Source: a virus. Taken from it: a stretch of DNA of 64,000 nt. The notes under the pieces are model-generated. The model did no database searches, was not told where the DNA came from, and saw only the letters and a program-made list of their open reading frames with translations. Position numbers and translations under genes: made by a program. Each line of letters begins with the position of its first letter. Positions within the stretch are counted from its first letter, which is position 1. Below, piece after piece: positions 3,927 to 24,668 of this stretch. The stretch covers positions 27,464 through 91,463 of the IMG/VR virus record IMGVR_UViG_3300014202_000478; one strand, 5' to 3'.

Positions 3927-4010
3927 TGGCCGAGGCGAGACTTGAACTCGCACGCCCTTACGGGCACTAGCTCCTAAGGCTAGCGTGTATGCCAATTTCA
4001 CCACTCGGCC
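3927..4010 (-). tRNA. tRNA-Leu(UAG), class II
   Basis: GGCCGAG/CTCGGCC acceptor, CTAGC-CT TAG GA-GCTAG anticodon arm, long variable arm, GTTCAAGTC T loop. Confidence 0.95.
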
Positions 4011-4108
4011 TATTTCCCAAAAACTGATTTCACTACTTCTACTAGGAATCTCCAATAGAGTGTTGCTTTAATTGCGGCGGTGAAAATCCATCTTCTTACT
4101 GTATCCAT
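4010..4108 (-). CDS. small hydrophobic/basic peptide (32 aa)
   Basis: TAAATA-N4-ATG; MDTVRRWIFTAAIKATLYWRFLVEVVKSVFGK; stop overlaps tRNA 5' G. Confidence 0.5.
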   Translation of the reverse strand: MDTVRRWIFTAAIKATLYWRFLVEVVKSVFGK

Positions 4109-4135
4109 ACTTTATTTAGTAATCCACACCAATTT

Positions 4136-4732
4136 TTACGAAGGCAATGGACTAAAAGCAACCGTGATTGTGTCGTTAGCACAAGGTCCACAAGCACAGG
4201 TTCCAGTTTGGCTAAATATAATTGCCGCCGTACCCGTCATGGTATCACAGTCTAATGGAAAATTCAAGTGGTTTCCGTCAACACAGGTGAACCCTATTTC
4301 GTTTTTTAAGGCAAGATAGCACACCCAATTACTGCCCGAACAGTATAGTTCAGCATGAAAAGTGACGCAATCACAGATTCCAGGGTAATCAAATTCATAT
4401 TTTTGATTTGCGACGTTCCACGGCAAAATATAAGCTTCATTGACTAAGCAACTACAACCTGCATTGGTATCGCTAATAGTCAACAACATCACGCTCGGCA
4501 GACATTGTGAACAACAAGGCTGTACTATTAGGCACAGGTTTGGAATTATTGATTCAGCATCATCTAATTGTAAGAAAGTTATAAAACAACACCCATCTAC
4601 CCAAATCTGGATAGGATACTGAACATCCAATGGATCGTAATGTAATATGCCTTCGTAGATTTGCCCTGTATAATCAACAATCGCTACGTTTTGACCATTA
4701 TATAATTCTAATTGTTCAGGAGTAACACCCAT
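4136..4732 (-). CDS. Cys-rich hypothetical protein, possibly virion-associated
   Basis: 198 aa with many Cys (PCCSQC, CDC, CACGPC). Confidence 0.65.
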   Translation of the reverse strand: MGVTPEQLELYNGQNVAIVDYTGQIYEGILHYDPLDVQYPIQIWVDGCCFITFLQLDDAESIIPNLCLIVQPCCSQCLPSVMLLTISDTNAGCSCLVNEAYILPWNVANQKYEFDYPGICDCVTFHAELYCSGSNWVCYLALKNEIGFTCVDGNHLNFPLDCDTMTGTAAIIFSQTGTCACGPCANDTITVAFSPLPS

Positions 4733-4739
4733 ATATGCC

Positions 4740-5540
4740 TTATGCTTGCTGTGGCTGCATCATTTGTTGTTGCGGCTGCTGTCCTAATCCCGTCACGCCT
4801 TGCCAACCTTGCTGCTGTTGTTGTTCCTGTGCTTTCCTCTTAACTACCTTGCTGGAAATAATGTTTAACGCCTTTATCACTTGCCAAAAACCTTGACGTA
4901 TAATATGTCCGTCTTCAGTTATAAACAATGGCACGCTAAACCTTTTAGCCAGGTATTCACTGTCAGCTATTGGGACTTCTCTATCATTAATACCATGAAC
5001 GATAATACTTTCAGGGTTCAAATGATTAGGTTGAACGTGGAATATCTTCCATGCTGGGCACAGAAGCAACATCGGAACTTCAGGGTGTTCTGCCGCTAAA
5101 GACAATGCAATAGCTCCACCTTGACTGCTGCCAATGATTATATCAGGAGTTCCATCTACTTTATTACGATACAATTCTTTGTTTTTCTCAATATGAGCCT
5201 GCCCAAAGTTTTGCAATGCTTTAGGGACGTTGAATCCATGAGCCAATCTACCAGCACCAGCAGCGAATATGTTAGCCTTGGTGTTGACTGTCTTGATATT
5301 ATACCCTAATGGCTTTAATAACGCCCCGTAGTTACCAGTTCCAGGTATACGTCCACTCCACATACCTGTAATCCAGACAATGTTTAGATCGCTTACACTC
5401 GGCGCAGACGCAGCGAAGCTCCTGATGGGGTCTTTTGGCGCAACCAATCCTTGCTTTCGCATCGCAAGGTGGTACGGGTTCTGTCCTTGCAATTTAGCTA
5501 TATCAGCAACTTGGGCTTCGAAAAACTCCTTAAAGTTCAT
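4740..5540 (-). CDS. alpha/beta hydrolase with capsid-targeting-like N-terminus and Gln-rich tail
   Basis: GSSQGG nucleophile elbow, HGINDREVP (Asp), EDGH (His); starts MNFKEFFEA. Confidence 0.8.
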   Translation of the reverse strand: MNFKEFFEAQVADIAKLQGQNPYHLAMRKQGLVAPKDPIRSFAASAPSVSDLNIVWITGMWSGRIPGTGNYGALLKPLGYNIKTVNTKANIFAAGAGRLAHGFNVPKALQNFGQAHIEKNKELYRNKVDGTPDIIIGSSQGGAIALSLAAEHPEVPMLLLCPAWKIFHVQPNHLNPESIIVHGINDREVPIADSEYLAKRFSVPLFITEDGHIIRQGFWQVIKALNIISSKVVKRKAQEQQQQQGWQGVTGLGQQPQQQMMQPQQA

Positions 5541-5730
5541 GCTAACCATACTGTAGTTAGTTTAGCTACAACTAATTTTGCGGGCGAATTGCAATTGTAC
5601 CAAGATGGGTAGAGGAAGCCCCGCCCCCGCTTATTCTAGCCAAGAATAAAGAGGTCGCTTACCAAACGAAAGAAAGCTAGTAAACTGATGGTAGGCGGTA
5701 AAAGATGCACCAGAAGCACTATATAACTCC

Positions 5731-6480
5731 ATGAATTTCAGACAATGGACAGAAGCGGCTGCTGAGTATAATCCCTACGCCTTTCATGCTATCATTCTAG
5801 CTGGCGGGCCTGGAAGTGGTAAAAGCCGTGTAGGACGCACAATCGCTGGTGCTTTCGGCTTCAATATCTCTGATAGTGACCGCCTTCTTGAACTAATGGC
5901 AGCCCATAGAAAAGAAGAATATCTGCTGGGTTTAACCAGCGGTCAGCCAGGTTACGACCAGAAAATGTCCAATACCAACAAAGCGGTAGAACTAAACGTA
6001 AAAAGAACCGCTCTGTGGCGACAGCAAGGAATACCTTACATTGTTGACATAACTGGAAGAGACGTTGGCTTAGTCTCCAAGATTAAAGAAGAACTAGAAC
6101 AAGAAGGATACGACGTATTCATGGTCTTCATTAATACTCCCCTTGAAACCGCCCGAAAAAGAAACAAGGGAAGAAGTAGAATCGTGGATGATGATTTTTT
6201 GGTAGATGCTTGGAACAAATCGAGAAAGTCTATTAGTGCCTATATCAACATCTTTGGTAAGAAGTTCTTGATGATAGACAATGACGATGATATTAATAAT
6301 CGAGCTTCTCTGCCAGCAGTTGAAGCAAGAATCCCAAGGATGATGACTCATCTGCTTACCCCAAATCAAATAGAGAACCCAATCGGGGAAAAAAAGCTCC
6401 AAGACATGAAGGGCAAACCGATTAACCAAATCTCGACAGACAAACCATTACCGCAGGTGGCCAATGTTGGACTATATTAA
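5731..6480 (+). CDS. P-loop kinase (zeta-toxin/AAA_33-like)
   Basis: LAGGPGSGKS Walker A, VDITG, FINTPLETARKRNKGRSR; starts MNFRQWTE. Confidence 0.8.
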   Translation: MNFRQWTEAAAEYNPYAFHAIILAGGPGSGKSRVGRTIAGAFGFNISDSDRLLELMAAHRKEEYLLGLTSGQPGYDQKMSNTNKAVELNVKRTALWRQQGIPYIVDITGRDVGLVSKIKEELEQEGYDVFMVFINTPLETARKRNKGRSRIVDDDFLVDAWNKSRKSISAYINIFGKKFLMIDNDDDINNRASLPAVEARIPRMMTHLLTPNQIENPIGEKKLQDMKGKPINQISTDKPLPQVANVGLY

Positions 6481-6691
6481 AAACAGAATCAAAGCTAGGA
6501 AATGGTTTAAGGATGTAGTTGAATCCAAATTGACTCCTGACTGTAACCGCGATGAAGTAGAAAATAAAGCACTAGAATGCGAATTTTATTTCTATCTCAA
6601 AGAAGGTCTGCTGTACTATAAGGCACATGATGATACTATCCCGTGCGTTATAGATGAATCAACTTGTCGTTGTAAAATCTGTGGTCTATAA
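6464..6691 (+). CDS. hypothetical protein
   Basis: 75 aa ORF overlapping upstream stop. Confidence 0.5.
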   Translation: MLDYIKNRIKARKWFKDVVESKLTPDCNRDEVENKALECEFYFYLKEGLLYYKAHDDTIPCVIDESTCRCKICGL

Positions 6692-6717
6692 ACAATTGAA
6701 TTGAAAGAGGTTCAATC

Positions 6718-7080
6718 ATGTGGATGTTCACGAAGTACGGGTTCTTCGCTTCTGCCAACGCACGTCAGGGCGAGGGAGAGCCTTGGCAACCCGTCGATAA
6801 GGACCGCATCGCGGTCAGGGCACGGGATAAGCAACACCTTGCTAATCTCGCGGGACGATTCCCAGCGTTGGCCAGCGTGCCGATTCACGATGACACGCTT
6901 GCAGACTATCGTTATAGGATTTTTATTCCCAAAACACAATGGGCAGAGATTGTTTCTGAACTTGCCGATGAAATGGATTATGACCGCTTTAAGCCTTCCG
7001 TAATCCCATTTGAAGGCGACAAGGACTATAAGCATACTCTTCTCGACGTTTGGAGCCTGATGTATGCTACTCAAAAGTGA
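6718..7080 (+). CDS. conserved phage hypothetical protein
   Basis: GAGG RBS; MWMFTKYGFF...VRAR...DYRYRIFI pattern recalled from phage proteins. Confidence 0.75.
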   Translation: MWMFTKYGFFASANARQGEGEPWQPVDKDRIAVRARDKQHLANLAGRFPALASVPIHDDTLADYRYRIFIPKTQWAEIVSELADEMDYDRFKPSVIPFEGDKDYKHTLLDVWSLMYATQK

Positions 7081-8501: not shown

Positions 8502-8519
8502 AAACTATATATATTTTAC
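8502..8519. promoter_or_regulatory. bidirectional late-promoter-like TATATATA between two ATGs 18 bp apart
   Basis: aaactatatatattttac separates ATG 8501(-) and ATG 8520(+); no room for a Shine-Dalgarno on either side. Confidence 0.6.
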
Positions 8520-12775: not shown

Positions 12776-13061
12776 TATACTTCTCCAGATACTCAGTGAG
12801 TTCCTTTAGCCTGTTCTTCTGAAATTCTAATTGATCTTCATGTGCTTTCTTTTGGCCTTGCATATATTCGAGCAAACTACTAACTGCCTCTTCCTTGGTT
12901 GCACTGCCTTTGGAAGAATAATGCCAACCACCAACACTTGTAGTCGCTAGCCACGGTTTGTCCAGTGGCCAAGACTCTACTTCACAGTCATTCCAATATG
13001 TCTTTCGACGGACATATATGCCATTAGGAAGGGTTTCATCATCTGTGAATGCTTCAAGCAT
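12768..13061 (-). CDS. hypothetical protein
   Basis: 97 aa ORF coupled to aceA. Confidence 0.6.
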   Translation of the reverse strand: MLEAFTDDETLPNGIYVRRKTYWNDCEVESWPLDKPWLATTSVGGWHYSSKGSATKEEAVSSLLEYMQGQKKAHEDQLEFQKNRLKELTEYLEKYNG

Positions 13062-14287
13062 CAGAATTGCTCCGCTTCGGTTGACTCTTTAAGAGCCGTT
13101 AGTTTGGACCCTATGGTTTCCGCAACCATATCAAAATACCCTACGCCAACTTCCCTTTGGTGCTTAACCGCTGTATATCCTTGATCTTGTAAATCAAACT
13201 CCTTCTCCTGCACATCCACATAAGCTTCCATATCTCTACGGTTGTATTCATAAGCCAAATCAAACATACCTTGATTTAGAACATGGAACCCAGCCAATGT
13301 TATAAACTGGAACTTATAGCCCATCGCCCCTAGCTCTTTCTGGAAATCGAATATTTGTTTTTCATTTAGCTTTTTCTTCCAATGGAAACTTGGAGAACAA
13401 TTATAGGCTAATAGCTTGCCAGGATACTTGGCGTGAATGCCTTCTGCGAACTTTTTGGCTTCTTCCAGGTCAGGATGGCTGGTTTCACACCACAGCAGAT
13501 CGGCATAAGGAGCGTAGGCTAACCCCCTGGCAATAGCCATGTCAATGCCGCCAGTGATATTACAAAATCCTTCTTCGGTTCTCGCACCCTTGACGAAAGG
13601 TTTATCAATATCATCTATATCTGAAGTTAGAAGTTTAGCTGAGTCAGCATCTGTGCGTGCGATAATGACTGTTGGCACATTGAGAACATCAGCGGCAAGA
13701 CGTGCAGCTACTAGGGTTTTAATGAAATGAGAGGCAGGTATTAGTACCTTGCCTCCCAAATGTCCACACTTTTTGGCCGATGATAATTGATCTTCAAAGT
13801 GTATGCCTGCTGTTCCTGCTTCTATCATCGCCTTTGTTAGTTCAAAGGCGTTTAGCGGTCCACCAAAGCCAGCTTCAGCGTCTGCCACGATTGGCACCCA
13901 ATAGTCAGTGGTAATTTTGCCTTCCATCCACTGAATTTGGTCAGCACGTCTTAAACAGTTATTGATTCTACGCACTAGATTGGGAACACTATTGACAGCG
14001 TATAGAGATTGGTCTGGATACATTTGCATTGAGTCATTATTGTCGGCGGCGACTTGCCAACCAGAACAATAGATTGCTGGTAATTTAGCTTTGGCCATTT
14101 GCATAGCCTGATTGCCTGTTACCGCTCCCAAAGCATGAACATAAGGCTTGTCATGCAACCTTTCCCAAAGTTTCTCTGAAGTTAATCTCGCTAAGCTGTG
14201 TTCTTCGACAAAAGAACCTTGAAGTTTTCTAACCTGATCTATATTGTAAGGACGCTCAACACCATGCCAACGGGTTTGTGTTTCCAT
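13061..14287 (-). CDS. aceA: isocitrate lyase
   Basis: [38 protein letters not shown] catalytic loop, [17 protein letters not shown]. Confidence 0.97.
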
Positions 14288-14343
14288 AAACTATCTACCC
14301 CTGAAAAGTTATATTAAAATATAAAAGTATTGATAAATATTAT

Positions 14344-15347: not shown

Positions 15348-15403
15348 AGTAGTTTTATAGCTTCGGTAAGTCCGATAGCCTTGAAAAAGTCAGTCCAACT
15401 CAT
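15323..15403 (-). CDS. possible 26-aa amphipathic peptide
   Basis: ATG 5 nt after tRNA 3' end; MSWTDFFKAIGLTEAIKLLWKLRKKN; overlaps alkB start. Confidence 0.3.
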   Translation of the reverse strand: MSWTDFFKAIGLTEAIKLLWKLRKKN

Positions 15404-15408
15404 AGTAG

Positions 15409-15492
15409 TAGCCAAGGTGGGAGTCGAACCCACACACCCTTAACGGGTACTGGATTTTGAGTCCAGCGCGTCTGCCATTCCGCCACTTGGCC
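15409..15492 (-). tRNA. tRNA-Leu(CAA), class II
   Basis: GGCCAAG/CTTGGCT acceptor; CTGGA-CT CAA AA-TCCAG; long variable arm. Confidence 0.95.
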
Positions 15493-15496
15493 ACGA

Positions 15497-16099
15497 TCAT
15501 TCCACATATAATGAAATGTTCTTTCTGCAATTGTCACGCTTATAACAGCCTTCCAATGCAGCCTTTACTTCATCATAGTTTGTTCCATCCCATTTGATGC
15601 ACCTTGGATGGGAATAATTCTTATTCGTATCATTAACAGGCATAATCCCTACGCCGCGTGGCCGTGCTTTTAACCAATTATCCATGTAGTCAGGAAAATC
15701 ATCATAAAGGAATTTTCCATAAACCATTGCCTTGTTTGAAGTTATGTGAACATCTATCAACTCGCCTAAATGAGTCTGACACCATTCTACCTTTTCTTTC
15801 CAGGCACGGGGATAGCGTTTTGGACCTTTTGTTAGAATGTGATTTTTAAACCCGATGGTTTCAGCGAGAGTAAAAATCTTCATTCCTGCGGTCAGAACGG
15901 GTAGATTGCGCCACCAACAAGGCTGTTTCTTGATTAAGCGAATCAGCGATTTGAAAGGCTCCTGTTCATCAGCCTGCCACATGCCAAGTTCGTCAAACCT
16001 TTTTAGGTCACTTTCGCTGACAAGTTTGCGAATGTCGGTTCGCAATTGTCCTTCATAGTCAGCGAGGCTACCATCCATATCAAACAGGCCGATGTTCAT
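15497..16099 (-). CDS. HAD-family 5'(3')-deoxyribonucleotidase
   Basis: LFDMDGSLAD motif I, ILT, KVEWC, LYDD motif IV. Confidence 0.85.
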   Translation of the reverse strand: MNIGLFDMDGSLADYEGQLRTDIRKLVSESDLKRFDELGMWQADEQEPFKSLIRLIKKQPCWWRNLPVLTAGMKIFTLAETIGFKNHILTKGPKRYPRAWKEKVEWCQTHLGELIDVHITSNKAMVYGKFLYDDFPDYMDNWLKARPRGVGIMPVNDTNKNYSHPRCIKWDGTNYDEVKAALEGCYKRDNCRKNISLYVE

Positions 16100-16169
16100 T
16101 GTATGCTCCTAAGCCATTCTCCAAATGCTGAGGCTGGTTGTGGTTGACCCTGAATTGTATCAATTTCTG

Positions 16170-16349
16170 TCATTTGCCACCACTATATTTTTTCATATTT
16201 TCTGTCTTGCAGTTTCCGTAATCCATGTCCTTTTCAAAGTGGGTTTCATCAGGATTTTGCATTAAATCCTGTTTCAGCCTTTTGCGAGCTTTCTTATTAC
16301 CTTCTTTTTTAAGCTTGCTTTTTAGCTGTCTGTATTCGCGTTTATCCAT
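16170..16349 (-). CDS. small basic hypothetical protein (59 aa)
   Basis: GGAG RBS; MDKREYRQLKSKLKKEGNKKARKRLKQDL...; below the track length cutoff. Confidence 0.65.
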   Translation of the reverse strand: MDKREYRQLKSKLKKEGNKKARKRLKQDLMQNPDETHFEKDMDYGNCKTENMKKYSGGK

Positions 16350-16362
16350 GTTTACTCCGTTG

Positions 16363-16370
16363 TATTTATA
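16363..16370 (-). promoter_or_regulatory. T4-type late promoter TATAAATA
   Basis: Exact TATAAATA upstream of the RBS of ORF 16170..16349. Confidence 0.55.
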
Positions 16371-17394
16371 TCATTTCAGCTATCATTGTTTCTAATGTAT
16401 GTTCGCACTTCCAAGCAGGAAAATGACTCATGAACTTTCTGGTATCGCTGATCCACCAGCGATGATCCCCAATCCTACTCTCATTCACAAGCTCATAGTT
16501 TAGCTTAGAGTTTGTGATTCTTTCAGCTAAGGATATTGCTTCAACCACGGAGCAACTGTTCTTCCTGCCTCCCCCTATGTTATACGCTTCACCTGGACGT
16601 GGGTTTTGGTAAAACTCGAAAAAAGCTGCAACCAAGTCATCTGCGTGGATGTTATCCCGAACTTGTTTCCCTTCGTAACCATATATTATGTAAGGGGTTT
16701 GGTTTATTATACATTTCGTCAAGTAGGAAAGAAAGCCATGAAGCGGAACGCTTTGGTGTTCTTTTCCAGTAATACAACCACAGCGAAACACGCCAGTTTT
16801 TAACCCGTTAAATTTTGCGTATTCTTGGGTTAAAAGATCGGCTGCGGCCTTTGACACTCCAAAGAAAGTGTGGAGTGAATTGTCAATCGACATGGACTCA
16901 TCAATTCCGTTATAGAATGGATGGTCAACTGGCAAGTCGCATCTTGTTTCCAGGTCTATTAGCGGTAGATGATTTGGAGTATTCCCATATACTTTGTTTG
17001 TTGACGTGAAAATGAATACAGCTTCGGGAGAGTATCTTTTAGTCAAGTCAAGGACGTTAAGAGTCCCATTTGCATTGATGTTAAAGTCAGTTATTACATT
17101 TCTGGACCAATCGTGTGAAGGCTGTGCCGCCGTATGAATCACTAAGTCTATTTTGTGGGTTCTAAAGACGTTCTCAACGCTGTTATAATCCCTTATGTCC
17201 AAATCATAATTGTAGAAATTCTCAACACTGTTCTGTATAAGAACTAGGTTATTCTTTATAGATGCATTTTTACCAAAGAAAGTTTCGCGGCTATTGTTTT
17301 CAATGCCTATTATTTGATCGAATTTGGTTCCCAAGAGCCTTACGCTTGCACTACCAACCAAGCCGCCCGCCCCTGTGATGAGAGCTATGGACAT
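16366..17394 (-). CDS. NAD-dependent epimerase/dehydratase (CDP-tyvelose/paratose epimerase-like)
   Basis: ITGAGGLVG Rossmann motif, HTAAQPSHD, STNKVYG, FRCGCITG, KQVRDNIH; the YxxxK position reads FGVSK. Confidence 0.9.
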   Translation of the reverse strand: MSIALITGAGGLVGSASVRLLGTKFDQIIGIENNSRETFFGKNASIKNNLVLIQNSVENFYNYDLDIRDYNSVENVFRTHKIDLVIHTAAQPSHDWSRNVITDFNINANGTLNVLDLTKRYSPEAVFIFTSTNKVYGNTPNHLPLIDLETRCDLPVDHPFYNGIDESMSIDNSLHTFFGVSKAAADLLTQEYAKFNGLKTGVFRCGCITGKEHQSVPLHGFLSYLTKCIINQTPYIIYGYEGKQVRDNIHADDLVAAFFEFYQNPRPGEAYNIGGGRKNSCSVVEAISLAERITNSKLNYELVNESRIGDHRWWISDTRKFMSHFPAWKCEHTLETMIAEMI

Positions 17395-17397
17395 GCA

Positions 17398-18084
17398 TTA
17401 TTTATGGTTATGAATAGCGAAATAATGGTAGAACCCATATTCTCTTGGCATTATTTTAGGTTTAACCCCTGTTTTCCATAAAGCATAAACTAAACAAGCT
17501 TGGCTACAAGGCCAAGCTGCTTTTGTTTCGTTTATATCAGTCCACCATGTTTCCGCTAGTTCATTTGAGAATTTATGCATGTTGTAAACAATGAATCCGT
17601 CCCAATAAAGACCCAGCTTAGTCGGCATCCCTTCTTTTTGATACTTTTCAATTCTGCTTGTCAGGGCTTCACGACCAGTTTCTACATATTTACCTATGCT
17701 AAGAACGTGGGTGAGTTCTTCGATAGGGCAATGTCTGTCACCGTGAACACTTAAAGCAAGATTGTAGTCAAAAATGTTCGACTCAACAATTTCTTTAACG
17801 AAATTCTTATTAATGATTTGATCTTGAGCGTCAAGGTGTATGACTAAATCATAACCTTCTAGTTTCTTACACTTGTTAGGAAATACTCTGTAGGCTTTAG
17901 CCTGCATACACCAAGGCCATCTAACCAAGTGAGGTGGTCGAGGATCGGTTAAAGGCATTAGGTTTTCTTCGTCATGAGTGTAATAAACGAAATCGCAAGG
18001 ATATGTTTGTGGCTCATGAGTGTCTTGGATTTCTGGTCTATCCCAGCCACCAAGGTTAGCAGAATAAATACATACAGATGTCAT
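17398..18084 (-). CDS. putative glycosyltransferase (DUF616-like)
   Basis: Starts MTSVCIYSANLGGWD; IHLD, HGDRHC, SQACLVYALW; track start lies inside tRNA-Tyr. Confidence 0.65.
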   Translation of the reverse strand: MTSVCIYSANLGGWDRPEIQDTHEPQTYPCDFVYYTHDEENLMPLTDPRPPHLVRWPWCMQAKAYRVFPNKCKKLEGYDLVIHLDAQDQIINKNFVKEIVESNIFDYNLALSVHGDRHCPIEELTHVLSIGKYVETGREALTSRIEKYQKEGMPTKLGLYWDGFIVYNMHKFSNELAETWWTDINETKAAWPCSQACLVYALWKTGVKPKIMPREYGFYHYFAIHNHK

Positions 18085-18096
18085 ACTGTATATAGG

Positions 18097-18180
18097 TGCG
18101 TAGGGCAGGATTCGAACCTGCGAAGAACTAAGTTCGCCAGATTTACAGTCTGGTGCAATTGGCCACTCTGCCACCTACGC
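18097..18180 (-). tRNA. tRNA-Tyr(GUA), class II
   Basis: GCGTAGG/CCTACGC acceptor; CCAGA-CT GTA AA-TCTGG; long variable arm. Confidence 0.95.
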
Positions 18181-18363
18181 ATAGAGCATTTGTTCTTGTA
18201 TTTTAATCCATGCTAAAGTTTCGATTTCAAGTTCTTTGATAAGAAAATAACTTCTTGGAAACACCTCTTCGATTTCTTCGATACTATCCGCTTGGACATA
18301 ACGGACAGGGCCGTAAAGATCATCGTCGTCTTCGCTTTCATATCTATAAATTGCATATATCAT
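18175..18363 (-). CDS. small acidic hypothetical protein
   Basis: MIYAIYRYESEDDDD...; the track's longer start overlaps a tRNA. Confidence 0.55.
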   Translation of the reverse strand: MIYAIYRYESEDDDDLYGPVRYVQADSIEEIEEVFPRSYFLIKELEIETLAWIKIQEQMLYA

Positions 18364-18446
18364 TGTATTATAATCCTCGATTCTGTGTTCGTCAGGGCTT
18401 TCACCCTGGCATGGCCCTGGCCTTTCGGCTGTTCCATGACTAACAG

Positions 18447-18521
18447 TGACCACCGTGGGATTCGAACCCACACATTCCACGTTCTGAGCGTGGCGACTCC
18501 TGCCAATTGGTCTAGGTGGCC
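18447..18521 (-). tRNA. tRNA with Leu anticodon CAG and short variable loop
   Basis: GGCCACC/GGTGGTC-A; CCACG-CT CAG AA-CGTGG; variable loop AATGT; 75 nt. Confidence 0.9.
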
Positions 18522-18787
18522 CTATTTTTCTTCATCGAATCACCCGTTGCATTACGATGATCCTTAATCTGCTTGTGATAATCTGGAATATCATCGTCGG
18601 CATGACAAGTAGTGCTTACACTAATTACTTTCCAACCATCATCCCACACACCTTCGCTGTCACGCAGTTTGAGGAACTTATTCAAGACAGCAAATTCCTC
18701 TGGAATATAACTAACTTGTTCTGAGTACGATGTTTCAGAATGCTTTTTCCGCATCTTGCATTGTCTGTAATAAACTGTCTTGCTCAT
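18512..18787 (-). CDS. hypothetical protein
   Basis: 91 aa; stop lies inside the 5' end of the tRNA. Confidence 0.65.
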   Translation of the reverse strand: MSKTVYYRQCKMRKKHSETSYSEQVSYIPEEFAVLNKFLKLRDSEGVWDDGWKVISVSTTCHADDDIPDYHKQIKDHRNATGDSMKKNRAT

Positions 18788-19448
18788 ATATTCTCAATTC
18801 AATCTTCCCGTTATCTACTACTAGGTATGTTGGCGAAGATTCAGTCCAACAGCCACTATTATAATAATCTTTATCCTCTTCCGCAAGATGAGTGTGCCCA
18901 CAACACACAAAATCGCATCTTTCTTTTTCTTTATGCTTACGGGCCAACCCTTTAATTCGGTCAGCACACCGCAGGAACGTTTTGGAGTTGTGTTTGGCTA
19001 ATTTAGCCAGGTAAAAACTCCCATCTAGTTTCTGTAGGAACCAGTATATCACATCTCCAAACCATGTTAGGATTGGATGTTCACTCAAGAAATCATCGTA
19101 TATGTCTCCGTGGAAACATAAAACCTGTTTCCCACCTGATTCGAAAATAAATTCGTCAGTATAATGAACCCCTATCAAATGGGCGATGTATTGTGCTGGT
19201 CCATGAGCATCATGGTTGCCCCTAATCCAAATTACTTCAATGGTGTCGGAAACTTTCCTTATAGTAGATAGGATTTTCCAGTGCCACTTGTGTAATCGGG
19301 AGTCGAAATTCTCGAAAACGTCACCGTTCAGGATCAGTTTCTTTGTTTCTATTTCTTTGTTTTGTATTTTTTCTAGGAAATTAACCAGCGACTTTGCTTG
19401 ACAGTTATCAGCACCAATATGTAAATCGGAAATAATGATTGCATCCAT
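18735..19448 (-). CDS. metallophosphoesterase (LpxH/UDP-2,3-diacylglucosamine hydrolase-like)
   Basis: SDLHIG, NGDVFE, RGNHD, FHGD, GHTH, YNSGCW. Confidence 0.88.
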   Translation of the reverse strand: MDAIIISDLHIGADNCQAKSLVNFLEKIQNKEIETKKLILNGDVFENFDSRLHKWHWKILSTIRKVSDTIEVIWIRGNHDAHGPAQYIAHLIGVHYTDEFIFESGGKQVLCFHGDIYDDFLSEHPILTWFGDVIYWFLQKLDGSFYLAKLAKHNSKTFLRCADRIKGLARKHKEKERCDFVCCGHTHLAEEDKDYYNSGCWTESSPTYLVVDNGKIELRIYEQDSLLQTMQDAEKAF

Positions 19449-19506
19449 ACTAAGTATTTACATTATTAGTCCCTTCGTATATGTTAATTTTCAGAGAAGA
19501 TTTCAG

Positions 19507-19587
19507 TGGCCAAGGTGGGAGTCGAACCCACAATCCCGAAGGAACAAGTTTCTAAAACTTGCGCGTATACCGTTTCGCCACAAGGCC
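19507..19587 (-). tRNA. tRNA-Leu(UAG), class II, with two U.U acceptor mismatches
   Basis: GGCCTTG/CTTGGCC; CAAGT-TT TAG AA-ACTTG; long variable arm. Confidence 0.85.
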
Positions 19588-19696
19588 ATAAAGATCGACT
19601 AGCAGGTGTCACGCCTTTTGATACCGCCGATCAGAATATCCGCCGCTCATTCTGGTTGTCATAGCTAGATGAACTTAAACCTCTTTGGGTAGCCAC

Positions 19697-20188
19697 TTAC
19701 ATATCCATATGTAAAGGAGGATCGCTCACCGCTCGCTCGACCAGCCCTTCGTTCGCGGAACTTGCGTTTTCGCCCCTGCAATGCTCACTGTCCGCTACGA
19801 CCGTTCCTTTTAAATCTCTTTTTTGGGAAGGACTTAACCTTCTAATTTTGGTGTCAGAAGTTAAACAAATTGAAGCTCCATCATTCCAGATTTTCGAATT
19901 TGTCTCAAAAGCTTCAACAATTTTTCTTTCTTCTAGCTCCGCATTACCAAAAACTGCAAATTTTCCACCAAAACTACCAGCTACTATAAATGGGTTATTT
20001 CGGTCTATTTTAACTTTTGTGCGTCTTATTTCCAAGTGAGCAAAGTCGAGTGTGGTCCAAACGTACTTCCACGGCTGGTCATTAAGCCGAGTGTACTTTT
20101 TAGGCCATTTTATAACTTCAAGCCCACAGAAATGCCACTCCTGTAGTGGCATTTTTAAGAGCCAATAGTCCAATTCTTCGAAAAACAT
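19697..20188 (-). CDS. hypothetical protein
   Basis: Starts MFFEELD 3 nt after the tRNA-Ser 3' end. Confidence 0.6.
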   Translation of the reverse strand: MFFEELDYWLLKMPLQEWHFCGLEVIKWPKKYTRLNDQPWKYVWTTLDFAHLEIRRTKVKIDRNNPFIVAGSFGGKFAVFGNAELEERKIVEAFETNSKIWNDGASICLTSDTKIRRLSPSQKRDLKGTVVADSEHCRGENASSANEGLVERAVSDPPLHMDM

Positions 20189-20191
20189 AAG

Positions 20192-20278
20192 CGGAGGGTG
20201 TAGGATTTGAACCCACGGTCCCCTTGCGGGGACTCTAGTTTTCAAGACTAGCGCAATCGGCCACTCTGCCAACCCTCC
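20192..20278 (-). tRNA. tRNA-Ser(UGA)
   Basis: GGAGGGT/ACCCTCC-G; CTAGT-CT TGA AA-ACTAG; long variable arm. Confidence 0.95.
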
Positions 20279-20313
20279 AGCAATTTCACACCCCGTTAGA
20301 CATATATAACAGT

Positions 20314-20904
20314 ATGCTAAACTTTAGGGGGTGGTTTATGGAGACTTTCAGCGTACCAAAGTCGCATATAAAAGTCAAGTTGCCTTCTGCTAAACAACCC
20401 AAAAACTTTTCCTGTGGGGCTTCCGCTTTAAGGGCTATCGCAGTCCATTTTAACGTCGGTCCTAACAACGAACAATTCTATATAGACAAGTGTAACACAA
20501 CTTATAAAGATGGTACACACCCAAAAGATATTATTCGTGTTGCCCGTGAACTTGGCCTAACCGTAAGGTCTAAGTCCAAAATGTCCATCAAAGACCTACA
20601 TGAGTATCTTGATGACGGTATTCCTGTTGTCTGCTCCATCCAAGCATGGGGCGATCAGAAAAAATATCCCGACACCGACCACAGCGGGCATTATGTCGTC
20701 GCCATCGGCTACACCAATGACAAAATCTATTTCATGGACCCGTCAATTAAAGGCCACCGTGGATTCCTGCCTAATGACGAATTTATCGAACGCTGGCACG
20801 ATGAAGAAGCTGATGGCACCAAACTCAATCGCTATGGAATCGCCATCTGGAATCCCACAGCAATTAAAAAACAACATTTGAACAAAGTCAAAAAGATTCA
20901 ATGA
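20314..20904 (+). CDS. C39-like cysteine peptidase with capsid-targeting-like N-terminus
   Basis: QPKNFSCGASAL (Cys), GHYVVAIGY (His), FMDPS (Asp); starts MLNFRGWFME. Confidence 0.85.
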   Translation: MLNFRGWFMETFSVPKSHIKVKLPSAKQPKNFSCGASALRAIAVHFNVGPNNEQFYIDKCNTTYKDGTHPKDIIRVARELGLTVRSKSKMSIKDLHEYLDDGIPVVCSIQAWGDQKKYPDTDHSGHYVVAIGYTNDKIYFMDPSIKGHRGFLPNDEFIERWHDEEADGTKLNRYGIAIWNPTAIKKQHLNKVKKIQ

Positions 20905-21134
20905 TAGTGTTCGGGCTTACGTCGATCCGAACGCTTTAACTTCATGATGGCCGACCTATAGCAATCCAACCAATATTCGTGTTGGAAGTTGTCAGGATTC
21001 CAGCCACTGAGAATCTTTTTGATGTAATCGTCCCACTTCATCTTGTTCTTGGCACAATTATCATCCAAAACTCGTTCTTCAAAAACCGTTGTTAGTTCAT
21101 CAAGGATATCAACTAGGGGTATTTTCTTGCTCAT
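20898..21134 (-). CDS. hypothetical protein
   Basis: MSKKIPLVDIL...; in array run. Confidence 0.55.
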   Translation of the reverse strand: MSKKIPLVDILDELTTVFEERVLDDNCAKNKMKWDDYIKKILSGWNPDNFQHEYWLDCYRSAIMKLKRSDRRKPEHYH

Positions 21135-21375
21135 TTTTATTTCCAATATAATTACCGTCGTCGTCCCAATCGTCATCGTTTCTTGGCTTGACTATCATCA
21201 ATACTAATTTGTCTCCGCACCACACAGGAGCGCGAAGCGTCGTCCATTTTTCATGTGTGTATTTTGTGTTCAATTGAAGGTATAAGTCTTCTAGGGAATC
21301 TGCACAAAGCACTTCTGAATCTATGCGTTTTCCTAGTTCTTTCAATTCTTTAAGTGTAATTGGTTCCCAACTCAT
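21109..21375 (-). CDS. hypothetical protein
   Basis: TAATG coupling to upstream ORF. Confidence 0.55.
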   Translation of the reverse strand: MSWEPITLKELKELGKRIDSEVLCADSLEDLYLQLNTKYTHEKWTTLRAPVWCGDKLVLMIVKPRNDDDWDDDGNYIGNKNEQENTPS

Positions 21376-21647
21376 TACCAACAATCCTCTTCATATTCAT
21401 TGCGCTGTGAAGCATAGTAGTCTTCCCATGCTTCCTTTTCGTATTTCGCTTCTAGCTCTCTATCTCTGATTTCTTGCAGTGATGGATAGCCATTGGCTTT
21501 CCTGTCCCTGCCAGGGTTAATCAGTTTTGAAAGCTGTCGTTCTGGATCGGTTGCATGAGCGTCCCCGTAGTAGAACTCATATTTGCATTCTGGACAATAA
21601 TCTCTGCGGGGGTCATTACCTAAATTCGGATGGTCGCAAAAATCCAT
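21375..21647 (-). CDS. small Cys-motif hypothetical protein
   Basis: AGGAG RBS just after tRNA; MDFCDH...YCPEC. Confidence 0.65.
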   Translation of the reverse strand: MDFCDHPNLGNDPRRDYCPECKYEFYYGDAHATDPERQLSKLINPGRDRKANGYPSLQEIRDRELEAKYEKEAWEDYYASQRNEYEEDCW

Positions 21648-21661
21648 TATTAAACTCCTAG

Positions 21662-21736
21662 TAGCACGGAAGGGATTCGAACCCTTACTGCCCACGTTTT
21701 AAATGTGGTGACTCCTGCCAGTTGGTCTACCGTGCC
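21662..21736 (-). tRNA. tRNA with Leu anticodon UAA and short variable loop
   Basis: GGCACGG/CCGTGCT-A; CCACA-TT TAA AA-CGTGG; variable loop GCAGT; 75 nt. Confidence 0.9.
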
Positions 21737-21752
21737 ATAAGTGGCCCTAGTC

Positions 21753-21929
21753 TTAACTCAGTATTACTAAATCGTTGCCCATATTGTCAGGTTTTGTATC
21801 CTTTTTAGTCGCGTCGTTAATTGCCTGGAAAAATCCTTGCATCTGCTCGTTAATATGTTCAACAGCTTCAATCTCTTCCTGACTCCAGCCAGCATCTTGA
21901 TACATTTTCCGCAATTCGTCTTTTGTCAT
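21753..21929 (-). CDS. small hypothetical protein (58 aa)
   Basis: ATG 2 nt after tRNA discriminator; MTKDELRKMYQDAGWSQEEIEAV... Confidence 0.55.
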   Translation of the reverse strand: MTKDELRKMYQDAGWSQEEIEAVEHINEQMQGFFQAINDATKKDTKPDNMGNDLVILS

Positions 21930-21931
21930 AG

Positions 21932-22019
21932 TGGCCTTGGCGGGATTCGAACCCGCACCCTCTTACGAGGACAACGTTCTCAACGTTGCGCGTTTACCTG
22001 TATGTTACACCACAAGGCC
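21932..22019 (-). tRNA. tRNA-Leu(GAG), class II, enlarged D loop
   Basis: GGCCTTG/CAAGGCC-A; CAACG-TT GAG AA-CGTTG; D region TAACATACAGGTAA. Confidence 0.88.
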
Positions 22020-22023
22020 ATAG

Positions 22024-22104
22024 TGTGGTAGGTGGGACTTGAACCCACACCCCTTTCGGGACACGCCCCTCAAGCGTGCGCGGCTGCCATTACGCCACTA
22101 CCAC
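22024..22104 (-). tRNA. tRNA-Leu(GAG), class II
   Basis: GTGGTAG/CTACCAC-A; CACGC-TT GAG GG-GCGTG; long variable arm. Confidence 0.93.
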
Positions 22105-22420
22105 ATGTTTTTCTTCGCTTCGTCAAAAAATATCTTCGAGCATTCAGACAGGTGCGTTTTTGTATATCTTTCTCCTGTCTTTATCCAGAAGAAATTGTAA
22201 ATTTCTCTAATGGCTTGCACCAAGCCATCCTCGGTCAACTCACCTCTGTAAGCTGCCAAGCGAAAACTTGGTCAGCCATATTCAGGGCATTGTAGTCCTT
22301 GAGTTAAAGGAAGCCTATAGCCATCCCTCCAAGCCCAACATCGCGGATTGTTCCATTCCTGAATCCGCTTTCCAACTACAATTAGTTCTGTAGGTGTCAT
22401 TTAACCTCCATAGGAAAAGG

Positions 22421-22600
22421 TTATATATCGTATGCTTCCCATTTCTTGTTATATTCTGCTCGCCATACTGAGTATCGTTGTTTTGGACCACGATATCCTA
22501 GTCGCTCTTTATTACGGATTTTGAATCCACATTCTGTGACCATTTTCCTGCGAACGAACTTATAGAACCCAGGATGGTCTAATATTCCATATTTATTCAT
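22421..22600 (-). CDS. small basic hypothetical protein
   Basis: ATG 2 nt after tRNA discriminator; MNKYGILDHPGF... Confidence 0.55.
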   Translation of the reverse strand: MNKYGILDHPGFYKFVRRKMVTECGFKIRNKERLGYRGPKQRYSVWRAEYNKKWEAYDI

Positions 22601-22602
22601 AG

Positions 22603-22677
22603 TAGCACGGGTGGGATTCGAACCCACACTGTCCACGTTCTAAGCGTGGCGACTCCTGCCAATTGGTCTACCGTGCC
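22603..22677 (-). tRNA. tRNA with Leu anticodon UAG and short variable loop
   Basis: GGCACGG/CCGTGCT-A; CCACG-CT TAG AA-CGTGG; variable loop ACAGT; 75 nt. Confidence 0.9.
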
Positions 22678-22852
22678 GTTCTTCTTCTAACTGCTTGCGT
22701 AATTTCGCAATTCTTAACCGCAAGCAATCCACACAAGTCACCTGTTCATCGACATAACTAAGCACTACTTGATCGTGGCCACTAATACCATACATTTTAC
22801 CGCAAAGAGCCATCAAGTCACTGCCCATGCCAGCATGAACTAATCCGTCCAT
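22640..22852 (-). CDS. small hypothetical protein (CxxC)
   Basis: 70 aa; 3' end reads 38 nt into the tRNA. Confidence 0.5.
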   Translation of the reverse strand: MDGLVHAGMGSDLMALCGKMYGISGHDQVVLSYVDEQVTCVDCLRLRIAKLRKQLEEERHGRPIGRSRHA

Positions 22853-23229
22853 ATTCTATACCCCGTTGGTTTACCGTGCCGATCATACTTCGTCCAACCT
22901 ACCTGCCTACAAAACCAATTCCAAACCTTTTTTCTCCAAGGACGCGAGAAATCCATAGGATAACCGTCTGCGTCCAAAGTTGCTCTATACCTTTCTGTCT
23001 CACGGTTATGTTCTGCTAGTTCTTCTGGATGCGTTTCCCAATATTCTCTTGACCGCTTTATATTCTCTGACTCGGCTTCCACCATTACTTTGACACACTC
23101 GCTGTCACGATTCTTTTCACATTCAGGACAGAAAGTAAAACTAAGGTGGCCATCCCACCAGGACCAACTTTCGCCTTCTAGTTTAACTCTCTTGCATAAA
23201 TCGCAATTCATTGTCCATATATCTTCCAT
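22840..23229 (-). CDS. hypothetical protein with CxxC pairs
   Basis: CDLC and CPEC; TAATG coupling. Confidence 0.65.
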   Translation of the reverse strand: MEDIWTMNCDLCKRVKLEGESWSWWDGHLSFTFCPECEKNRDSECVKVMVEAESENIKRSREYWETHPEELAEHNRETERYRATLDADGYPMDFSRPWRKKVWNWFCRQVGWTKYDRHGKPTGYRIWTD

Positions 23230-23393
23230 TAATACCTCATGTCACTCTTGTCGCCGCCCTTATTCAAACGAGCAAGTATTGCTTCTGGAAATTCCTTGGT
23301 AGGTTTACCCCACCATTTATTCATTTTGCGATCCCATATTTGCCAGCCCTTGGGATTAGTTCTTACGCAATATCTAGCGTTTCTTTTGCCCAT
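23229..23393 (-). CDS. small basic hypothetical protein (54 aa)
   Basis: MGKRNARYCVRTNPKGWQIWDRKMNKWWGK...; TAATG coupled to next ORF. Confidence 0.55.
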   Translation of the reverse strand: MGKRNARYCVRTNPKGWQIWDRKMNKWWGKPTKEFPEAILARLNKGGDKSDMRY

Positions 23394-23541
23394 AATCAAA
23401 GTTGCGATATTTGATCCTATAGTATACCTTTCTAGCCTTCTCTTCCAGGTAATTGTATCCTTTAATTACCCAATACATCGCTAAAAGAGAATAGAGATAG
23501 AATATACTACGCCACGTCATTCGTTCATATCTGTTTTCCAT
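23374..23541 (-). CDS. small membrane-associated hypothetical protein
   Basis: ATG 2 nt after tRNA-Ser; hydrophobic stretch IFYLYSLLAMYWVI. Confidence 0.5.
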   Translation of the reverse strand: MENRYERMTWRSIFYLYSLLAMYWVIKGYNYLEEKARKVYYRIKYRNFDYGQKKR

Positions 23542-23543
23542 AG

Positions 23544-23627
23544 CGGTAGGTGCGAGAGTTGAACTCACAAAACCTTTCGGTTTGTCCCGCTTCAAACGGG
23601 GTGGGCCTGCCAATGCCCAAACCTACC
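23544..23627 (-). tRNA. tRNA-Ser(UGA), atypical D arm
   Basis: GGTAGGT/ACCTACC-G; anticodon loop TT TGA AG; long variable arm. Confidence 0.88.
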
Positions 23628-23630
23628 AAG

Positions 23631-23717
23631 CGGAAGGTGTCGGAGTCGAACCGACAAGCCCCTTTCGGGACTACTCGTTTTCGAAACGAGCCGACTTGCC
23701 AATGTGCAAAACCTTCC
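23631..23717 (-). tRNA. tRNA-Ser(CGA)
   Basis: GGAAGGT/ACCTTCC-G; CTCGT-TT CGA AA-ACGAG; long variable arm. Confidence 0.9.
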
Positions 23718-23720
23718 AAG

Positions 23721-23801
23721 TAGTCTAGGTGGGAGTCGAACCCACAATCCCGAAGGAACGAATTTTTAAGACTCGCGCGTATACCGTTTCGCCACAAGAC
23801 C
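23721..23801 (-). tRNA. tRNA-Leu(UAA), class II
   Basis: GGTCTTG/CTAGACT-A (one U.U); CGAGT-CT TAA AA-ATTCG; body similar to tRNA at 19507. Confidence 0.9.
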
Positions 23802-23807
23802 ATGAAG

Positions 23808-23894
23808 CGGAAAGTGTGGGAGTCGAACCCACAAGCCCCTTTCGGGACTACTTAGTTTCCAACCAAGCTGACTTGCCAATGTGCAAAACTTTCC
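23808..23894 (-). tRNA. tRNA-Ser(GGA)
   Basis: GGAAAGT/ACTTTCC-G; CTTGG-TT GGA AA-CTAAG; long variable arm. Confidence 0.9.
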
Positions 23895-23895
23895 G

Positions 23896-24054
23896 TTACT
23901 TATCCTTACAAAAATACCATATTACAAATCCTATAGCAACAAAAACTAATGTAAAAGCCGCTGCCTGCAAAAACATTTCTGGTGTAATCGGCGGATTATC
24001 ATAATGGTTCTTACCAGGCCCGCTTAATGCCTGATTTATAATTACAGTATCCAT
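23896..24054 (-). CDS. small single-pass membrane protein (52 aa)
   Basis: ATG 2 nt after tRNA; TM segment AAAFTLVFVAIGFVIWYF. Confidence 0.6.
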   Translation of the reverse strand: MDTVIINQALSGPGKNHYDNPPITPEMFLQAAAFTLVFVAIGFVIWYFCKDK

Positions 24055-24056
24055 AG

Positions 24057-24131
24057 TAGCCACCGTGGGATTCGAACCCACACTGTTACCCTTTTGAGAG
24101 GTACGACTCCTACCAGTTGGTCTAGGTGGCC
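24057..24131 (-). tRNA. tRNA with Leu anticodon CAA and short variable loop
   Basis: GGCCACC/GGTGGCT-A; TACCT-CT CAA AA-GGGTA; variable loop ACAGT; 75 nt. Confidence 0.9.
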
Positions 24132-24136
24132 ATATA

Positions 24137-24220
24137 AGCGACTGAATAAAGCTGAAAGTCACCCTTATTCACTTAAATTGAGGGCACTCCGAATTTACGC
24201 AGACTACATCAATCATCGCT
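24137..24220 (-). ncRNA. candidate three-way-junction small RNA between two tRNAs
   Basis: P1 AGCGAT/GTCGCT, P2 GATTGA/TCAATT, P3 TGAATAAGG/CTTTATTCA; G.U pairs favour the minus strand. Confidence 0.45.
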
Positions 24221-24222
24221 AG

Positions 24223-24302
24223 TGTAGCGTGCAGGAGTCGAACCTGCAAGGCTTTCGCGTCAAGGTTACAGCTTGGTGGGCCTGCCAATGCCCAAACGCT
24301 AC
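24223..24302 (-). tRNA. tRNA-Tyr(GUA)
   Basis: GTAGCGT/ACGCTAC-A; anticodon loop CT GTA AC; D arm identical to Ser(UGA) at 23544. Confidence 0.88.
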
Positions 24303-24309
24303 ATAAGAG

Positions 24310-24392
24310 TGGGTGTATGAGGATTCGAACCCCTTAGCACTTAGTACAATCGGGTTACAGCCGATTTCGCTTCCCACAGACGTAGTACACCC
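24310..24392 (-). tRNA. tRNA-Tyr(GUA)
   Basis: GGGTGTA/TACACCC-A; ATCGG-CT GTA AC-CCGAT; imperfect T stem. Confidence 0.85.
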
Positions 24393-24393
24393 A

Positions 24394-24512
24394 ATTTGGT
24401 AGCAGGCTTAAAGTGCTACTCGGACTATGACCTTGTTTTTCAGACGGAATTTCACCGCCAGGCCAGCCGTCCGCACCCTATTGCTTGCGTGCGAACCGCC
24501 TTACTACCAAAT
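24394..24512 (-). ncRNA. candidate ~120-nt structured RNA of unknown family
   Basis: Closing stem TTTGGTAGTAAGGC/GCCTGCTACCAAA; hairpin GTTCGCAC/GTGCGGAC; compound arm ending GGCGG-TGAAATT-CCGTC. Confidence 0.55.
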
Positions 24513-24513
24513 A

Positions 24514-24570
24514 ACTCGTATCCCTATTCCGTTAGACGAGTCCACTAACGGCTGAGCGGATTGCTCCACT
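24514..24570 (-). ncRNA. candidate GNRA hairpin plus H-type pseudoknot
   Basis: AGTGGA-GCAA-TCCGCT; S1 CCGTTAG/CTAACGG, L1 TGG, S2 ACTCGT/ACGAGT, L3 AATAGGGAT. Confidence 0.45.
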
Positions 24571-24579
24571 TGGGTTTAG

Positions 24580-24668
24580 CGGAAGGTGAGGGAGTCGAAC
24601 CCTCAGCACCCGTGAGGGTGCGCTAGCTTAGCAGGCTAGTGTGACGAACCGATAGTCACCTACCTTCC
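24580..24668 (-). tRNA. tRNA-Ser(GCU)
   Basis: GGAAGGT/ACCTTCC-G; CTAGC-CT GCT AA-GCTAG; long variable arm. Confidence 0.95.

Follow-up and report, generated by a model that had tools for sequence, protein, structure and literature searches.

How does a virus come to hold, in a single stretch of its DNA, eighteen transfer RNA (tRNA) genes for three amino acids and none for any other? The question is raised by a window of 64,000 nucleotides (nt), positions 27,464 to 91,463 of the IMG/VR record IMGVR_UViG_3300014202_000478, in which every tRNA gene has an anticodon for leucine (Leu), serine (Ser) or tyrosine (Tyr). An earlier note, made from the letters alone, assigned all of these genes to the bacterial class II families, those with a long variable arm, and proposed that selection acts on this structural class rather than on codon usage. 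The analysis described here leads to a somewhat different answer. The Leu/Ser/Tyr block makes up the class II part of a tRNA complement that is complete and sorted, and the best reading of it, which we hold to be probable, is that of an attenuator-gated class II module within the full tRNA complement of a huge phage. As far as literature searches reach, the sorting, its conservation, the Leu/Ser/Tyr leader peptide and a set of arm-less Leu tRNA genes all appear to be undescribed.

Gene calling with ARAGORN (its intron mode included) and with Rfam model RF00005 on the window reproduced exactly the 18 genes and anticodons listed in the earlier note. Seventeen were called by ARAGORN, all on the minus strand and spanning 3926-24668, and RF00005 added one that ARAGORN did not call, at 21932-22019, with the anticodon loop TTGAGAA, that is, anticodon GAG. 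The total comprises ten Leu genes (UAG three times, CAA, UAA and GAG twice each, CAG once), five Ser genes (UGA twice, CGA, GGA and GCU once each) and three Tyr genes (all GUA); the anticodon belongs to a Leu, Ser or Tyr codon family in 18 of 18, with no other isotype found by either method. A nineteenth such gene, Leu(UAA), lies elsewhere on the contig (contig 17117-17200), and the 19 genes together represent ten anticodons. The discriminator base is A73 in all Leu and Tyr genes and G73 in all Ser genes, conforming to bacterial rules in 19 of 19, and none of the genes encodes CCA. Five genes fell under the filters of the general tRNA model in the whole-window scan and were recovered by a local scan; these five have close orthologues in relatives. 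In the cloverleaf of 16 long-arm Leu genes taken from three phages, 18 of the 24 predicted pairs are preserved through double-sided changes, and the tRNA genes are judged real because of these paired changes in the stems and because the discriminators fit the bacterial rules. Leu, Ser and Tyr account for about 22% of the tRNAs in the complete relative described below, which for 18 genes gives 0.22^18, or about 1e-12, a figure inflated by paralogy that still stands for about ten distinct lineages. A Leu/Ser/Tyr-only composition of the window by chance is excluded.

How this list is to be read depends on the record that contains it. The record is a single contig of 103,371 bases, classed as linear in IMG/VR, with a CheckV completeness of 21% and no terminal repeats on the 103,371-base contig. 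Its CTP synthase shares 76% identity with the enzyme of the uncultured phage LR756511.1, whose genome has 595,163 bases, and 97 of the 169 contig open reading frames (ORFs) match LR756511 in one collinear run of about 95 kb (392,418-487,852). LR756511.1 is, we presume, from the 2020 study of Al-Shayeb et al. A completeness of 21%, the lack of a terminal repeat and collinearity with 95 kb of the 595-kb LR756511 identify the record as a fragment. The window belongs to this fragment, which amounts to about one fifth of a huge phage's genome of about 0.5 Mb. In LR756511, 63 tRNAs and a transfer-messenger RNA (tmRNA) were found by ARAGORN, and 60 tRNA matches by Rfam. About 50 of these are class I tRNAs for other amino acids, located at 176-291 kb, and 13 Leu/Ser/Tyr genes form an uninterrupted series at 409-437 kb, composed of an intron-bearing Leu(UAA) at 409 kb, a Leu(UAG) at 427.7 kb and a group of eleven at 434.4-437.5 kb; one additional Leu gene is at 6 kb. 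The class I region lies 120-230 kb from the Leu/Ser/Tyr block.

The statement that the phage carries tRNAs for "no other amino acid" therefore finds no support as a property of the phage, given the roughly 50 class I tRNAs of LR756511 and the fragmentary record. The earlier note had itself allowed that a full class I set elsewhere in the genome would reduce a class-restricted repertoire to clustering by class, and such a set is found, by proxy, in LR756511. Nor is the contig strictly Leu/Ser/Tyr: ARAGORN and Rfam find a class I-bodied tRNA about 410 nt before the window (contig 26927-27050, minus strand, Rfam 47.6 bits). This gene has a 52-nt structured insert in the anticodon arm, is read as Arg(UCU) by the ARAGORN intron mode, with an unusual C33, and is the sole tRNA-like gene of the contig outside Leu, Ser and Tyr. 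More generally, when all tRNA genes on a viral contig belong to one class, the contig may simply be a piece of a sorted genome.

The sorting itself is real, conserved and unusual, and a class-pure block is found again in three relatives. When the tRNA order of LR756511 was shuffled 200,000 times, the observed adjacency of its Leu/Ser/Tyr genes was reached in none of the shuffles (0/200,000); the same test, scored by gene length for phages T5 and KVP40, gave p=0.07 and p=0.53, respectively. In Atu_ph07 and the huge phage LR756508, as in T5 and KVP40, tRNAs of at least 80 nt are intermixed with short ones. A second relative, IMG/VR 3300037264_002724, with 78-85% protein identity to this phage, has 14 tRNA genes behind the same flanking gene, 13 of which are Leu, Ser or Tyr genes. 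The fourteenth is an irregular gene of 81 nt in the slot of Leu(UAA) 23720, with G73, an acceptor stem resembling that of Ser tRNAs and an anticodon loop of 6 nt, for which ARAGORN reports a two-base anticodon. Among more distant SbcD relatives (24-51% identity, 14 metagenome loci) none has tRNA genes nearby, and the block is therefore confined to a close clade.

Not every gene in the block has the shape that its class name implies. The class II assignment made in the earlier note stands by amino acid (18 of 18) and fails in part by shape, with a long variable arm (a stem-loop of more than 10 nt) in 14 of the 18 window genes. The other four (18446, 21661, 22602 and 24056) have Leu anticodons, a length of 76 nt and a 5-nt variable loop. 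With anticodons UAG, CAG, UAA and CAA, they make up a second, nearly complete Leu decoding set, and the CAG anticodon exists on the contig only as the short-arm gene 18446. The family is characterized by the D-arm TAGnCCAAT(T)GGCAGGAG, the variable loop ACAGT and A73. IMG/VR 3300037264_002724 has the same four genes, up to 100% identical, with 100% for Leu(CAA) 24056 and 97% for Leu(UAG) 22602; the latter is also about 80% identical to tRNA-Leu(tag) of Streptomyces phage NootNoot. The family occurs in cultured, unrelated Streptomyces phages, NootNoot included, where it is found among class I genes, and it is a widespread phage tRNA type. An attempt to trace its origin through the nearest non-family relatives gave an ambiguous result, with Glu, Pro and Leu tRNAs all at about 75%. 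Since these short-arm Leu genes lie inside the Leu/Ser/Tyr block, sorting is by amino acid and not by arm. Of the structural-class selection proposed in the earlier note, the part that survives is a real and conserved grouping that does not follow codon demand; the four short-arm genes shift its basis from the arm to the amino acid. LeuRS is the synthetase of class II tRNAs that tolerates loss of the arm, unlike SerRS.

Three tRNA genes of LR756511 also deserve mention. Its Leu(UAA) at 409169-409955 (minus strand) contains an intron of about 700 nt, as read by the ARAGORN intron mode; its syntenic counterpart, the Leu(UAA) at contig 17117-17200, has no intron. In its class I region there is an 83-nt long-arm tRNA with the Thr anticodon UGU (234720-234802) and a short tRNA, of 75 nt, whose anticodon CGA is one for Ser (290999-291073), so that shape disagrees with anticodon class in both.

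Twelve co-oriented genes, at 21661-24668, form a core array, and it is the sequence before this array that suggests how the block may be controlled. A scan of 10 kb (window 15000-25200) for promoters and terminators revealed a promoter-like site and an intrinsic terminator on either side of a leader ORF (Table 1), with the terminator positioned between the leader ORF and the array, an arrangement conserved in relatives; tRNA-Ser(GCU) is the first gene past the terminator in three phages. The leader contains 14 consecutive Leu/Ser/Tyr codons, and between them these call on every one of the array's ten anticodon species: each of the five Leu targets appears once, and the four Ser targets and Tyr are all represented. 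Both promoter and leader are present in four phages. In three of them the ORF has 27 codons with 15-16 Leu/Ser/Tyr codons, and the fourth contig ends inside the ORF; the counterparts in the relatives are MHTFSASLLLSSYYSLLSLSSARRWTN, MHTFSASLRLSSYSLSSLLYSNVRRGT, and MHTFSASLRLSSYSSLSLLYS..., where the contig ends. Residue order and synonymous codons vary between phages and the composition is kept, and there therefore appears to be selection on the codon content of the leader. The conserved Leu/Ser/Tyr leader shows that the phages handle these three amino acids together, as a unit, for reasons that we can only infer. Low-complexity frames are common (about 75 in the 595 kb of LR756511), so that composition alone is weak evidence, and position and conservation carry the argument. 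An exact search of IMG/VR with a leader 16-mer returned 11 matches, ten of them with no tRNA nearby, which were dismissed as chance matches.

RNA folding predictions add to this picture. Leader codons 4-9 are predicted to pair with an invariant segment after the stop codon, TAGGCTTAGCGG, overlapping the stop codon, and TAGGCTTAGCGG has an alternative predicted partner in the terminator's 5' arm, a pairing of -11.7 to -14.5 kcal/mol. Both pairings (1:2 and 2:3) are predicted in three phages. Promoter, ribosome-binding site, regulatory-codon ORF and terminator thus stand in order before the genes, an attenuator layout conserved in relatives, and the predicted leader geometry matches that of a trp-type attenuator. 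From this we infer a read-through switch at the leader terminator. The core array would be transcribed from its own promoter through the translated Leu/Ser/Tyr leader and then meet a strong terminator. When charged Leu, Ser and Tyr tRNAs run short, the ribosome would slow and stall on the leader codons, and the stalled ribosome would free the segment after the stop codon; the freed segment could then pair with the 5' arm of the terminator, transcription would read through, and more of exactly these Leu/Ser/Tyr tRNAs would be made. In addition, a boxA-like motif, TGTTCTTTGAAAA, is found at window 24680-24700 (minus strand), past the terminator and ahead of the first tRNA; the IMG/VR relative retains the motif, and in LR756511 it is deleted.

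Several findings weigh against an attenuator-gated class II module. The sequence of the proposed antiterminator is invariant in the three readable phages, and because the partners of the 2:3 pairing do not vary there is no covariation to support it; the 17-bp terminator is moreover much the stronger structure. Seven of the 19 genes do not belong to the run under leader control and are scattered between protein genes. Only LR756511, a relative at 55-85% protein identity, and not this phage itself, shows the class I set, and an IMG/VR search with one protein of the LR756511 class I region found no relative. Finally, neither a leader BLAST nor two coarse scans detected a similar leader ahead of the LR756511 class I arrays, yet with a class I search this coarse, leader control may not be confined to class II.

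The usual explanation for phage tRNA genes is codon usage or, more recently, replacement of single tRNAs destroyed by host nucleases, and extensions of both explanations, together with neutral change, were considered for the block. The alternative that survives best, though we regard it as unlikely, is counter-defence, in which a host effector disables tRNAs by way of the long arm, the phage senses the resulting stall through the leader, and the response consists of fresh class II tRNAs along with arm-less Leu tRNAs that escape the grip of the effector. A Schlafen-11-like RNase, or a nucleotidyltransferase of the AbiEii/MenT type that blocks the tRNA 3' end, in either case of the abortive-infection type, would be candidates. 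Sensing and supplying Leu, Ser and Tyr together as one unit would be expected on this account, as would the high redundancy (19 genes for ten anticodons), the complete second Leu set without the arm (UAG, CAG, UAA, CAA), and the CCA-adding enzyme and Rnl2-type ligases that LR756511 encodes. Arm-dependent targeting has moreover been published: MenT3 of M. tuberculosis needs the long variable loop of tRNA-Ser and acts mainly on tRNA-Ser (PMC11162799), human SLFN11 prefers type II tRNAs (as cited in PMC13462974), and the abortive-infection toxin AbiEii of S. agalactiae is reported to have a likely preference for class II tRNAs (bioRxiv 10.64898/2026.01.19.700257). However, the lineage supplies all tRNA classes and not class II alone, the prokaryotic Schlafens characterized so far are not class II specific and cut Lys, Met, Ala or all tRNAs (PMC13056530, PMC13462974), and the short-arm Leu tRNAs of the unrelated Streptomyces phages, being among class I genes, are not tied to such a block. 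A class-directed host effector is plausible, and would fit the leader and the arm-less Leu set.

Distinctly less likely is that the block arose by neutral birth and death, with tandem duplication, gene conversion and anticodon change multiplying tRNA genes. Long-arm genes would then beget long-arm genes only, blocks would be class-pure by descent, and the leader would have come later to mirror the genes downstream of it. Traces of such events are present. Leu(UAA) 23720 and Leu(UAG) 19506 are anticodon-shifted paralogues with 89% identity, Ser(GGA) 23807 and Ser(CGA) 23630 have different anticodons and 88% identity, the D-arm of Tyr(GUA) 24222 is identical to that of Ser(UGA) 23543, and a T-stem GTGGG common to Leu and Ser genes is found in 22 of 46 genes of three blocks versus 1 of 50 class I genes. 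From this paralogue identity, the shared D-arm and the T-stem it follows that duplication, anticodon change and probably gene conversion have occurred within the block, and the partial clumping of long tRNAs in T5 is in keeping with a neutral origin. What such a process leaves unexplained is that three isotypes stay together, and apart from the others, across phages diverged to 55-80% protein identity; that copies dispersed over 35 kb are also only Leu, Ser and Tyr; that class I-shaped Leu genes are in the block; and that the leader is conserved, which implies selection on the unit. Very improbable, lastly, is compensation for Leu, Ser and Tyr codons poorly served by the host: all 14 of these codons are fairly evenly used and covered by the anticodon set, and the six-codon Leu and Ser families leave the most room for a phage-host difference in usage, but the isotypes are not those in highest demand, in a comparison that covers phage codons (Leu 8.3%, Ser 5.5%, Tyr 4.0%, versus Lys 7.7% and Ile 6.8%), five amino acids with no tRNA here (Lys, Ile, Ala, Val and Glu) being as frequent as Leu or Ser, six-fold degenerate Arg is absent, and LR756511 supplies every isotype anyway. 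On the phage side, at least, the "not codon usage" of the earlier note is borne out, with Lys and Ile well used and no gene for either in the window.

On the preferred reading, a leader-controlled class II module of a full complement, the lineage keeps its complete set of tRNAs sorted, with class I in one region and Leu/Ser/Tyr at least 120 kb away, in a block adjoining sbcCD-like and ribonucleotide reductase genes. The block grows through local duplication and anticodon change, and it decodes Leu with two parallel sets, of which one has the long arm and the other lacks it. All of its tRNAs need charging by host synthetases: no synthetase domains of class Ia, IIa or Ic (SerRS-type and TyrRS-type included) were found in the contig or LR756511, and AbiEii/MenT, Schlafen and RtcB domains were likewise found in neither. 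A class II tRNA toxin carried by the phage, or synthetases of its own, are ruled out by these domain searches of the contig and LR756511.

The protein genes around the block, among them the auxiliary genes of Table 1, were identified by Pfam and PHROG matches, which include a baseplate hub, a tail sheath, an SbcCD-like nuclease and ribonucleotide reductase, and further bL12, isocitrate lyase and CTP synthase; this gene content fits a huge myovirus with a translation toolkit. Isocitrate lyase was tried as a guide to the host and set aside, its best matches being from two metagenome-assembled genomes of Planctomycetota (a weak hint), with many phyla at 62-67% identity. The conserved gene upstream of the leader (25394-26233) has only hypothetical look-alikes in Atlas and no Pfam or PHROG match. 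Within the core array, the non-tRNA sequence of about 180 nt between Ser(GCU) and Tyr(GUA) (24394-24570, minus strand) matched no family in a local Rfam scan.

Table 1. Features of the leader, the tRNA block and the neighbouring genes, in window coordinates.
Feature	Position	Strand	Remarks
Sigma-70-like promoter TTGACA-16-TAAGAT	24947..24974	-	10/12 consensus, joint-best promoter-like match in scan
Leader ORF, MHTFSVN-LLSSYYSLSLSLSS-AGRWTE	24792..24875	-	27 codons, ribosome-binding site present
Intrinsic terminator	24735..24772	-	17-bp stem + T run, strongest terminator-like site in scan
tRNA-Ser(GCU)	24579..24668	-	90 nt; ARAGORN + Rfam
tRNA-Tyr(GUA)	24309..24392	-	84 nt; ARAGORN
tRNA-Tyr(GUA)	24222..24302	-	81 nt; ARAGORN
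Short-arm tRNA, Leu anticodon CAA	24056..24131	-	76 nt; ARAGORN + Rfam
tRNA-Ser(GGA)	23807..23894	-	88 nt; ARAGORN
tRNA-Leu(UAA)	23720..23801	-	82 nt; ARAGORN + Rfam
tRNA-Ser(CGA)	23630..23717	-	88 nt; ARAGORN
tRNA-Ser(UGA)	23543..23627	-	85 nt; ARAGORN
Short-arm tRNA, Leu anticodon UAG	22602..22677	-	76 nt; ARAGORN + Rfam
tRNA-Leu(GAG)	22023..22104	-	82 nt; ARAGORN + Rfam
tRNA-Leu(GAG)	21932..22019	-	88 nt, enlarged D-loop; Rfam 51.6 bits, not ARAGORN
Short-arm tRNA, Leu anticodon UAA	21661..21736	-	76 nt; ARAGORN + Rfam
tRNA-Ser(UGA)	20191..20278	-	88 nt, long arm, G73; ARAGORN + Rfam
tRNA-Leu(UAG)	19506..19587	-	82 nt, long arm; ARAGORN + Rfam
tRNA, Leu anticodon CAG	18446..18521	-	76 nt, 5-nt variable loop, A73; ARAGORN, Rfam 52.9 bits
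tRNA-Tyr(GUA)	18095..18180	-	86 nt, long arm; ARAGORN, Rfam 61.5 bits
tRNA-Leu(CAA)	15408..15492	-	85 nt, long arm, dispersed copy; ARAGORN, Rfam 59.3 bits
tRNA-Leu(UAG)	3926..4010	-	85 nt, long variable arm, dispersed copy; ARAGORN, Rfam 56.9 bits
Calcineurin-like phosphoesterase	18735-19448	-	interleaved with dispersed tRNAs
2-Oxoglutarate (2OG)-Fe(II) oxygenase	14772-15347	-	interleaved with dispersed tRNAs
Isocitrate lyase	13061-14287	-	interleaved with dispersed tRNAs
P-loop kinase (AAA_33/zeta-like)	5731-6480	+	interleaved with dispersed tRNAs
Ribosomal protein bL12	1409-1816	-	interleaved with dispersed tRNAs
CTP synthase	36176-37894	+	interleaved with dispersed tRNAs

Comparison with known systems places the block among several that it resembles in part. 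Huge phages have been described with tens of tRNA genes whose sequences differ from the host versions, and with bL12, CCA-adding enzyme, RNA ligases and tmRNA, all of which occur here or in LR756511, but neither class sorting of tRNA genes nor leader-peptide control is described there (PMC7162821). The tRNA clusters of T4, T5 and KVP40 are also made up of tight, co-oriented genes, processed from polycistronic transcripts; in T5 and KVP40, however, the long tRNAs (at least 80 nt) stand among short ones, whereas the block here is purely Leu/Ser/Tyr and far from the rest. T5 tRNA-Tyr rescues the phage against retron-Eco7 PtuAB, and T5 tRNA-Lys against PARIS and PrrC. These T5 genes are likewise phage copies of tRNAs removed by a host effector, but they concern a single isoacceptor and a known nuclease, whereas the present case would concern a whole structural class and a putative effector. 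Retron-Eco7 PtuAB, PARIS and PrrC are among the tRNA-directed nucleases listed in PMC13462974. SLFN11, MenT3 and AbiEii show that the long variable arm can be a handle that singles out tRNAs of the Leu/Ser/Tyr type, although their domains are not encoded by this phage or LR756511; the block, if its switch works, would offer a handle in turn on whether bacteria, like human SLFN11, attack class II tRNAs as a group.

A further parallel is with the attenuators of amino-acid operons (trpL, hisL, leuL, pheL, thrL) and of pheST, which share with the leader a promoter, a short ORF of regulatory codons, a stop codon beside the pairing segment and an intrinsic terminator; weak, sub-threshold Rfam matches to Thr_leader and Leu_leader also fall on the leader stretch. 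In those operons enzymes are controlled, whereas here tRNAs would be controlled and three amino acids sensed together, and a full-text literature search found no description of leader-peptide attenuation of a tRNA operon. A giant-phage lineage here files its tRNA genes by class and holds the Leu/Ser/Tyr genes under a switch that apparently measures the decoding of their own codons. If the switch works as proposed, it would be an instance of leader-peptide feedback control of tRNA supply, following a logic known for amino-acid operons.

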